From sequence record PV469800.1: a stretch of 64,000 nt of DNA; one strand, written 5' to 3'. Source of the stretch: Escherichia phage HMD-P10. The notes beneath the pieces were generated by a model. The model saw only the letters and a list, made by a program, of their open reading frames with translations. It had not been told where the DNA came from and did not search any database. Position numbers and translations under genes: made by a program. Numbering within the stretch: position 1 is the first letter of the stretch; each line of letters opens with the position of its first letter. Shown here piece after piece: positions 57,539 to 58,324 of this stretch.

Positions 57539-58324
57539 ATGGGTATTGTAAAAATCATCAATGGGGATATCTTCTCCGCATTTGATAAAGGTAAGTTTGA
57601 TATTATTGGTCACGGTTGCAACTGTATGAATTTAATGGGTGCAGGTATCGCTGACAAGATTTCTAAACTTTACCCAAAAGCATATGAGACTGATACAGAA
57701 GTCTATCTGTATGCAGGTGGTATAGGTCACAAACCCTGTGAAAATTTACTAGGCAATTTCTCTGTAGCACGTTTAGAACAAGGCCGTATAGCTAACCTTT
57801 ACACTCAGCTTAAGACTGGTAAAGATGCCCGATACAGTGCTTTAGAGTCATCTTTGAAACAACTTAACAGATACTGTGAAGTCAATCAGTTGAAGAAAGT
57901 TGGGTTACCTATGGTTGGTGCAGGTATCGGTGGACTTGACCCTCAAGCCGTCACCGTTATCATTAATCAGGTGATGAAGAGTGTAGATGTTTATCTGTAT
58001 GTCTACGAAGGAGAGATGTACCACAAGCTACGCTCAGGTTGGAAGAACTACTGTGAACCAGAATACTTTGCAGGTGTAGTAGTGTTCACTGATGATGTAG
58101 TTACCCTCTTCAGACGAAGAGAAGGTAAGGTACATCAAAGTAACCCTCCGGTTGAAAAGATGTCTCTAAGTAACGCTCTAGTTACCCACCTGTCGAAGAG
58201 CAATCACAGAATTGCAGTAACATTTGGCAGTGATGCAGACACATATATCTATGCAAGAACTGCTGAGGATGTTGAGGAAATTTTCTCTTCACCGGAAGTT
58301 ACCTTCTTAGACGCAAAGAACTAA
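57539..58324 (+). CDS. macro-domain protein (ADP-ribose binding/hydrolase-like)
   Basis: 261 aa; GDIF...DIIGHGCNCMNLMGAGIADKI and VGLPMVGAGIGGLDP align with macro-domain Gly-rich loops (cf. YmdB GDIT...NAA..L.GGGGV and AFPAISTGVYGYP). Confidence 0.5.
   Translation: MGIVKIINGDIFSAFDKGKFDIIGHGCNCMNLMGAGIADKISKLYPKAYETDTEVYLYAGGIGHKPCENLLGNFSVARLEQGRIANLYTQLKTGKDARYSALESSLKQLNRYCEVNQLKKVGLPMVGAGIGGLDPQAVTVIINQVMKSVDVYLYVYEGEMYHKLRSGWKNYCEPEYFAGVVVFTDDVVTLFRRREGKVHQSNPPVEKMSLSNALVTHLSKSNHRIAVTFGSDADTYIYARTAEDVEEIFSSPEVTFLDAKN

Follow-up and report, generated by a model that had tools for sequence, protein, structure and literature searches.

Escherichia phage HMD-P10, a Felixounavirus (Felix O1-like myovirus), encodes a 261-aa protein in which a macro enzyme domain is fused to a fast-evolving orphan domain. 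Sequence comparison suggests that the Felix O1 group, including the lineage of the model NARP1 phage, carries in this protein a probable phosphatase encoded outside the NARP1 operon, where it was not seen by the published screen. In detail, we regard the chances as about even that the gene encodes a distally located Adpp-type phosphatase, which would convert RES-generated ADP-ribose-1''-phosphate (ADPR-1''P) to ADP-ribose (ADPR) for use by NARP1. By analogy, this most likely function has an experimental precedent from 2026. The term "window" denotes the whole stretch of 64,000 nt that was analyzed (record PV469800.1).

The macro gene and its flanking regions

The gene and its immediate signals comprise the following features:

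57525..57531, + strand: Shine-Dalgarno-like GGGAGAG, read from the sequence
57539..58324, + strand: complete coding sequence of the two-domain macro protein (261 aa plus stop; PHROG 335, 242 records)
58354..58395, + strand: intrinsic-terminator-like hairpin with a 17-bp stem followed by a T-run, 30 nt past the macro-gene stop (consensus scan only)

The ATG start codon directly abuts the TAA (57536-57538) of an upstream 78-aa ORF. The product contains the exact strings NGDIF, FDIIGHGCNCMNLMGAGIADKI and KVGLPMVGAGIGGLDP, so that the protein and the motifs quoted for it in the original prediction were found as described. The match to PHROG 335 covers aa 1-260 with an E-value of 7e-111. At a coverage of at least 80%, the gene is present in 242 records of the phage database; tblastn matches to the macro part occur in 2,796 phage records, those over the full length in only about 255. 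The macro part shows dN/dS ratios of 0.10-0.20, the C-terminal part of 0.2-0.6. A Pfam Macro score above cutoff, the PHROG match, the 242 phage records and the dN/dS values together demonstrate that 57539..58324 is a real gene and no chance ORF.

Within the 477-nt gap downstream of the gene, a search for RNA elements yielded nothing except the terminator-like hairpin; all promoters and terminators were called from consensus matches alone. Over the 2.3-kb region of the macro gene, many phages of Escherichia and Salmonella are 94-97% identical to the window, and the gene also occurs in Felix O1 (NC_005282.1). Annotations in related records are "phosphatase", "putative phosphatase", "hypothetical protein" and "O-acetyl-ADP-ribose deacetylase". 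A literature search for Felix O1 in combination with macro, ADP-ribose or phosphatase retrieved no papers.

Fold and active-site residues of the macro domain

The protein is divided into the following segments and motifs:

57539..58009, + strand: macro domain, aa 1-157, ALC1-like / Poa1p-like / phage Adpp-like class
57611..57625, + strand: His25-Gly-Cys-Asn28-Cys, active-site motif H-x-C-N-C, aligned with HSCNC of Poa1p and H24-Q-C-N27-C of Gary Adpp
57806..57808, + strand: Gln90 codon, in the column of the catalytic Lys of TARG1 (K84) and DarG (K80); Gln in all Adpp, BT1257 and SCO6735 (Q85)
57917..57934, + strand: Gly127-Ala-Gly-Ile-Gly-Gly132, second glycine-rich diphosphate-binding loop, with Gly131 at the position of TARG1 Asp125
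58010..58321, + strand: linker helix and orphan beta-rich C-terminal domain, aa 158-261, restricted to Ounavirinae two-domain proteins

The presence of a macro domain, as proposed earlier, was borne out by two approaches. Pfam Macro (PF01661) matches aa 25-141 with 29.6 bits against a gathering cutoff of 22 (E-value 7.5e-7; profile positions 2-117 of 118), and an AlphaFold2 model built with 12 family sequences (mean pLDDT 75.9) places the macro domain at aa 1-157, followed by a helix as linker and a C-terminal domain rich in beta structure. The macro domain has the three-layer alpha/beta/alpha macro fold. The earlier description as a macro protein therefore holds for aa 1-157, but it overlooked a separate domain at about aa 158-261.

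The HGCNC loop had been regarded as atypical, a view that the alignments do not support. The segment HGCNCMNLMGAGIA aligns residue for residue with HSCNCNGSWGGGIA of yeast Poa1p and also with AHQCNCFCRMGRGIA of the phage enzyme Adpp. The loop itself corresponds to HSCNC in Poa1p and to AHQCNC in Adpp and holds the residues essential in Adpp, His25 and Asn28 being aligned with H24 and N27. Judged by these alignments, the motif is characteristic of a macro subclass and not aberrant. His25, Asn28, Gln90 and both glycine loops are invariant or nearly so across the family, with Gln in place of His25 in the Kolesnikvirus orthologue. In the column of the catalytic Lys, the sequences read PTK in DarG, ITK84 in TARG1 and YTQ (Gln90) in the protein studied here. 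The macro domain as a whole is under strong purifying selection (dN/dS 0.10-0.20).

The NARP1 genes and their distance from the macro gene

The window also contains a Prs-like/NAMPT-like gene pair:

46982..47881, + strand: Adps, Prs-like ADP-ribose pyrophosphokinase, first NARP1 enzyme (Pfam Pribosyltran and Pribosyl_synth; 38% identity to Thalassavirus Adps)
47928..49709, + strand: Namat, NAMPT-like nicotinamide ADP-ribose transferase, second NARP1 enzyme (Pfam NAPRTase and NAMPT_N; 40-44% identity to Thalassavirus Namat)
49721..49744, + strand: terminator-like hairpin directly 3' of Namat (consensus scan only)

By sequence, this pair is identified as NARP1 (Adps/Namat), since its products share 38-44% identity with the NARP1-AP enzymes of Thalassavirus and the NARP1 prototype (genes 79-80) was defined in Bas63, likewise a Felixounavirus. 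Adps and Namat are thus encoded in the same genome as the macro protein. The macro gene had been placed near these NAD-related genes, which lie upstream on the same strand, but this proximity has to be qualified. The end of Namat and the start of the macro gene lie 7.8 kb apart, and 16 annotated genes are located between them in phage C600M2. The interval includes rIIA, rIIB, spanins and small ORFs, and terminator-like hairpins occur at 49721, 54199 and 55991, that is after Namat, after rIIB and after an ORF ending at 55979. As a match from the consensus scan only, the hairpin at 49721..49744 would mark NARP1 as a transcription unit apart from the macro gene. Because of the 7.8 kb, the 16 intervening genes and the terminator-like hairpins between them, the macro gene is located outside the NARP1 operon.

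This position has to be seen in the light of recent work on NARP1 phages. The defence protein aRES cleaves NAD+ to nicotinamide and ADPR-1''-phosphate, which cannot be used by Adps, and some phages encode a Poa1p-like macro protein, Adpp, inside the NARP1 operon (Osterman et al., bioRxiv 10.64898/2026.01.28.702374). Purified Adpp of Vibrio phage Gary (gp137) converts ADPR-1''P to ADPR, and Adpp mutations abolish the anti-aRES activity, the mutant constructs being H24A and N27A (bioRxiv 10.64898/2026.01.28.702374). The published Adpp screen covered only two genes on either side of NARP1, phages of Escherichia, Salmonella, Shigella or Erwinia are missing from the resulting table, and Felix-type phages from the experimental panel (bioRxiv 10.64898/2026.01.28.702374). 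The macro gene does not lie within two genes of Adps or Namat. Given the range of the screen and a table without Escherichia or Salmonella phages, its absence from that table is to be expected. The cloned aRES came from E. coli, Klebsiella and Enterobacter; these bacteria serve as hosts of this phage group or are closely related to its hosts.

Relationship to known macro enzymes

Pairwise comparisons of the macro domain with the NARP1-associated Adpp proteins gave 52-75 bits for six of the seven and 34 bits for the seventh (RYC). The scores for other characterized enzymes were 45 bits (TARG1), 35 bits (DarG), 33 bits (SCO6735/BT1257) and 32 bits (Poa1p). In a distance tree calculated without bootstrap, the Ounavirinae proteins nest in a phage clade together with the validated Gary Adpp; SCO6735/BT1257, Poa1p, TARG1 and DarG are located outside this clade. 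A profile built from phage sequences only and searched against the PDB found BT1257, SCO6735, DarG, TARG1 and Poa1p all similarly well (E-values 1e-20 to 1e-16).

Gary Adpp, a member of the same phage clade, aligns end to end with the macro domain at 27-28% identity. Both proteins have the H-x-C-N-C motif with the two functionally essential residues, Y-[GT]-Q and the G-x-G-[LI]-[AG]-G loop, and both genomes encode Adps and Namat. In the Thalassavirus Noelle, a relative of Gary, the gene order is Adps-macro-Namat, and over its entire length the macro protein has 28% identity to the one studied here. Adpp proteins are single-domain proteins of about 150-170 aa (entries of Table S1 read 151-168 aa), whereas the protein described here has 261 aa including the orphan C-terminal domain, and its gene is found in a separate terminator-bounded unit 7.8 kb or 16 genes away from NARP1. 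Unlike Gary Adpp, the candidate phosphatase is known from its sequence and is not listed in the published Adpp table.

The resemblance to Poa1p, the ADP-ribose 1''-phosphate phosphatase of S. cerevisiae (PDB 6LFQ-6LFU), is detectable by sequence only in the N-terminal third. Poa1p has Ser at the position of Gln90 as well as long insertions, and it acts on a by-product of eukaryotic tRNA splicing. SCO6735 and BT1257 (Gln-type ALC1-like; PDB 5E3B and 2FG1/2AFC) are bacterial single-domain proteins and share the H-x-x-N...Q pattern and the G-C-G-L-A-G-G loop. They are the top matches in the unbiased profile search (E-value 1e-20), but reach only 33 bits in pairwise comparison. They have N-D, WGKGFV and a longer mobile loop where the protein studied here has N-C and MGAGIA; the loop from Gln to the conserved Tyr comprises about 9 residues here versus about 14 in SCO6735. 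The equivalents of SCO6735 Asn27 and Gln85 are present as Asn28 and Gln90. The documented substrates of SCO6735 are ADPr-thymidine DNA and ADP-ribosylated protein. The enzyme efficiently reverses the ADP-ribosylation of DNA thymidine by DarT; it requires both N27 and Q85, and the Q85A variant is inactive.

In comparison with the Lys-type ALC1-like glycohydrolases DarG, AdfM and TARG1, the catalytic residues K80, K78 and K84 are replaced by Gln90, and Asp125 of TARG1 by Gly131. The NCBIfam equivalog model for DarG scores 47.4 bits against a cutoff of 250 (E-value 1e-12) and matches with its macro half only (profile positions 4-154 of 338); the PADLOC DarG model gave a similar result (E-value 1e-12). 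The C-terminal domain is unrelated to the DarT-binding C-terminal domain of DarG. On the basis of Gln90, Gly131 and the DarG score below cutoff, the macro protein is assigned by sequence to a position outside the Lys-type DarG/TARG1/AdfM group. An argument that the missing catalytic Lys speaks against any anti-DarT function was withdrawn, because the Gln-type SCO6735 reverses DarT modification; the missing Lys excludes membership of the Lys-type subclass only.

Distribution and genomic context in related phages

For a survey of gene order, 80 viral-contig loci were fetched, consisting of 29 loci of the Ounavirinae type and 51 loci with short homologues from other phages. The two-domain form (259-283 aa) is present in all 29 Ounavirinae-type loci. 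Among the 22 of these with at least 9.9 kb of upstream sequence, 20 have Namat 7.5-8.3 kb upstream on the same strand, and this synteny extends to Kolesnikvirus, another genus of the Ounavirinae. Two exceptions were observed. In one, a 1.9-kb insertion pushes NARP1 beyond the flank (L029), and in the other, the natural Felixounavirus L012, NARP1 is deleted (window position 47006 is joined to 50106) and the macro gene is kept. At a coverage of at least 80%, the phage database contains similar numbers of records with the macro gene (242) and with NARP1 (252).

The short homologues (median 160 aa) have Adps or Namat within 10 kb in 11 of 51 loci, in several cases directly adjacent, and have neither within this distance in the other 40; a range of 10 kb on either side undercounts distal NARP1 linkage in other phages. 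For comparison, a total of 859 NARP1 pathways was reported for 20,185 phage genomes (Osterman et al., bioRxiv 10.64898/2026.01.28.702374). The phage macro clade is enriched for NARP1 linkage and not restricted to NARP1 phages. In most of its members, those of T4-like genomes among them, NARP1 is missing from the 10 kb on either side, so that the clade serves at least one purpose independent of NARP1.

The orphan C-terminal domain

The C-terminal domain of about 100 aa evolves 2-4 times faster than the macro domain. Residues from about 158 to 261 have no Pfam match, and a phmmer search of 1.84 billion representatives found relatives within its own family only, in addition to two spurious repeat proteins. 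Neither a sequence nor a fold match was obtained in the PDB. The sole match in BFVD is the SUSP2 orthologue, and its low TM-score indicates that the model of this domain is not robust. The domain charge, considered as a clue to nucleic-acid binding, follows no consistent pattern. Furthermore, the domain was compared with aRad1, an aRES-binding inhibitor, and this identity was rejected (hhalign probability 0.1%); an aRad1-like ORF was not found in the 64,000-nt window.

At the profile level, the domain is conserved across the Ounavirinae. Pairwise similarity is not detectable between the C-terminal regions of the protein encoded in the window, of a divergent allele and of the Kolesnikvirus orthologue, yet all three align to one common segment of PHROG 335. 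The C-terminal domain is real and constrained. The divergent allele replaces window positions 57681 to 58510 in two loci (L030 and L031) and is 52% identical to the window in the macro domain and 27% in the C-terminal domain; these genomes are otherwise about 92% identical to the window, with 97-98% identity in Namat. Faster evolution of the C-terminal domain together with such cassette-like exchange would be expected of a module contacting host proteins, and the domain may mediate protein-protein contact.

A bifunctional counter-defence factor, which we consider rather improbable, would combine both activities: the macro domain would detoxify or recycle ADPR-1''P or an ADP-ribosyl adduct, and the C-terminal domain would bind and inhibit, or sense, an effector such as aRES or a DarT-like transferase. 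Such a factor would act in two ways, as DarG does, but with a new fold that is unrelated to DarG. The high substitution rate of the C-terminal domain, its cassette-like replacement and the retention of the gene in the NARP1-deleted phage are compatible with an arms race of this kind.

Possible functions of the macro protein

The reaction sequence envisaged for the macro protein would start with RES-domain NAD+ phosphorylases such as aRES, which would convert NAD+ to nicotinamide and ADPR-1''P, a product that phage Adps would not be able to use. The macro domain would strip the 1''-phosphate from ADPR-1''P and yield ADPR. Adps (46982-47881), the presumed consumer of this ADPR, would pyrophosphorylate it, and Namat (47928-49709) would join the product to nicotinamide, by which NAD+ would be restored. 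The computed results comprise the macro fold, the conservation of both residues essential in Adpp, the closest similarity to the Adpp family and the co-residence with NARP1. From these we infer the substrate of the macro domain and a functional coupling with NARP1, which would have to act in trans because the macro gene is located in a different transcription unit 7.8 kb away. Based on the overall relatedness to Adpp and the co-residence with NARP1, the Adpp-type phosphatase is the best-supported reading. The suggestion in the original prediction that the protein cooperates with the Prs-like/NAMPT-like pair has gained in substance by this comparison, as the pair corresponds to NARP1, and NARP1 has been shown experimentally to be fed by Adpp, the closest characterized relative of the macro protein.

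Several observations speak against the Adpp reading. The macro gene is located outside the NARP1 operon with terminator-like sites separating the units, it is kept in L012 in the absence of NARP1, and most members of the phage macro clade have no NARP1 within 10 kb. Validated Adpp shares only 27-28% identity with the macro protein, His25 is replaced by Gln in the Kolesnikvirus orthologue, and none of the characterized Adpp proteins has the extra C-terminal domain. Finally, the H..N...Q pattern is common to SCO6735, a DNA/protein ADP-ribosylhydrolase, and for this reason the active-site residues do not discriminate the substrate.

The main alternative, distinctly less probable, is the removal of ADP-ribose that defence ADP-ribosyltransferases attach to phage DNA (thymidine, as by DarT2), RNA or protein, by an SCO6735-like, Gln-dependent and water-mediated mechanism. 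In such a hydrolase, the C-terminal domain might bind the toxin as the second domain of DarG does. The matches of the NCBIfam and PADLOC DarG models (E-value 1e-12) point in this direction, as does the H-x-x-N...Q pattern of SCO6735, an enzyme capable of DarT reversal whose residues N27 and Q85 have equivalents in N28 and Q90. With AdfM, a phage macrodomain acting as an anti-DarT2 factor exists; a macro domain joined to a fast-evolving second domain and the replacement of alleles would fit a protein-protein arms race, and the gene is kept in the NARP1-deleted phage and in NARP1-free phage lineages. However, the catalytic Lys of DarG (K80), TARG1 (K84) and AdfM (K78) is Gln90 and Asp125 of TARG1 is Gly131, the DarG model reaches 47 bits against a cutoff of 250 with the macro half only, and the 33 bits for SCO6735/BT1257 are well under the value for most Adpp (52-75 bits). 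In addition, N-C and MGAGIA contrast with N-D and WGKGFV in SCO6735, the loop following Gln is about 5 residues shorter, and the C-terminal domain has neither sequence nor fold similarity to that of DarG.

It is unlikely that the macro protein processes or sequesters another soluble ADPR derivative without NARP1, such as O-acetyl-ADPR, ADPR-cyclic phosphate products, or the cADPR-type or His-ADPR signals of Thoeris. The annotation of some records as O-acetyl-ADP-ribose deacetylase would agree with this function but was transferred by similarity only. TARG1/OARD1 is the best single-sequence match in the PDB, most clade members have no nearby NARP1, and the NARP1 accessory enzymes RyDEP convert immune signals to ADPR; the sole biochemically tested member of the phage clade is nevertheless an ADPR-1''P phosphatase. 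An inert macro domain or a pure binder, that is an ADPR sensor or scaffold, with the real activity residing in the C-terminal domain, is rated as highly improbable. The Gln in place of His25 in the Kolesnikvirus orthologue and the constraint on the C-terminal domain (dN/dS below 1), which is kept across the Ounavirinae at the profile level, would be compatible with it, but a dN/dS of 0.10-0.20 and the invariant or nearly invariant residues His25, Asn28, Gln90 and glycine loops argue for a working macro domain.

Implications for NARP1 phages

The gene is widespread and was annotated long ago, and members of its domain family are frequent in myoviruses. The results add detail to a picture that is already emerging rather than starting a new one. 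With its orphan C-terminal domain, the protein offers a concrete candidate for a new module that binds effectors. If the assignment of the macro protein to Adpp is true, the published share of 15% of NARP1 phages with an associated macro protein would be an underestimate, since the count extends no further than two positions from NARP1. NARP1 phages including Bas63, Felix O1 and more than 240 relatives would then carry a phosphatase acting in trans, which would extend NARP1 against RES-type NAD+ phosphorolysis. The hosts of the Felix O1-like relatives are E. coli, Salmonella, Shigella and Erwinia, and under the same assumption it would become predictable that these phages, a group in therapeutic use, resist aRES.

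Sequence context of the macro gene and NARP1

The following features lie next to the gene of the macro-domain protein and at the end of Namat, which together with Adps forms the NAD+-rebuilding pair NARP1.

57302-57538 (+): 78-aa ORF, PHROG 2210, whose stop codon abuts the ATG of the macro gene
58325-58801: unusually long non-coding gap of 477 nt 3′ of the macro gene
58354-58395: strong terminator-like hairpin within this gap (consensus match)
within 49693-49744: near-consensus sigma-70-like promoter, TTGACA-16-TATGAT, overlapping the Namat end (consensus match)
within 49693-49744: terminator-like hairpin with a 10-bp stem, immediately after this promoter (consensus match)

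The 78-aa ORF has the cysteine pattern CxxC...CxGC, which suggests a zinc ribbon, and its overlap-free junction with the macro gene, reading TAAATG, is suggestive of translational coupling. On the 3′ side, the gap is an indel site among relatives, at which many BLAST matches break into two pieces, and an Rfam search of the gap gave no match. The close packing of promoter and hairpin at the end of Namat suggests, as judged from the sequence, a tight transcription-unit boundary past NARP1.

Variation of the macro gene and NARP1 among related phages

In two of the viral loci compared (L030 and L031), a cassette-like allele replacement is found at the macro gene (locus 10143-10934, equivalent to window 57681-58510), extending from about 140 nt inside the gene to about 190 nt beyond its stop. 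The divergent version shares 52% amino acid identity with the window protein in the macro domain and 27% in the C-terminal domain, while identity with the window amounts to about 92% for these genomes and to 97-98% for their Namat. In the orthologue of Erwinia phage vEam_PM_21 (Kolesnikvirus; 11998-12780, 260 aa), the C-terminal domain is detectable via the PHROG 335 profile only and the position of His25 is occupied by Gln (IGQGCNC). At the equivalent site of Adpp, the ADPR-1″P phosphatase of Vibrio phage Gary, the exchange H24A kills the function (bioRxiv 10.64898/2026.01.28.702374).

A natural Felixounavirus variant (IMGVR_UViG_3300045988_004931) has the entire NARP1 region deleted, with window position 47006 fused directly to 50106 at locus position ~2546. 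The macro gene is retained ~7 kb downstream of this junction, and its macro domain is 98% identical to that of the window. In Salmonella phage ST11 (MF370225.1, 78532-81380), the annotation of Namat is split in two by an intervening homing endonuclease, which shows that NARP1 is targeted by inserting mobile endonucleases in the Felix O1-type phage group.

ADPR-1″P also arises as a by-product of 2′-phosphotransferase-dependent RNA repair. Since, in addition, two RNA ligase genes (1386-2312 and 8814-9800) flank the Thalassavirus Adps-macro-Namat operon of Vibrio phage Noelle, the macro enzyme may be linked to RNA repair.
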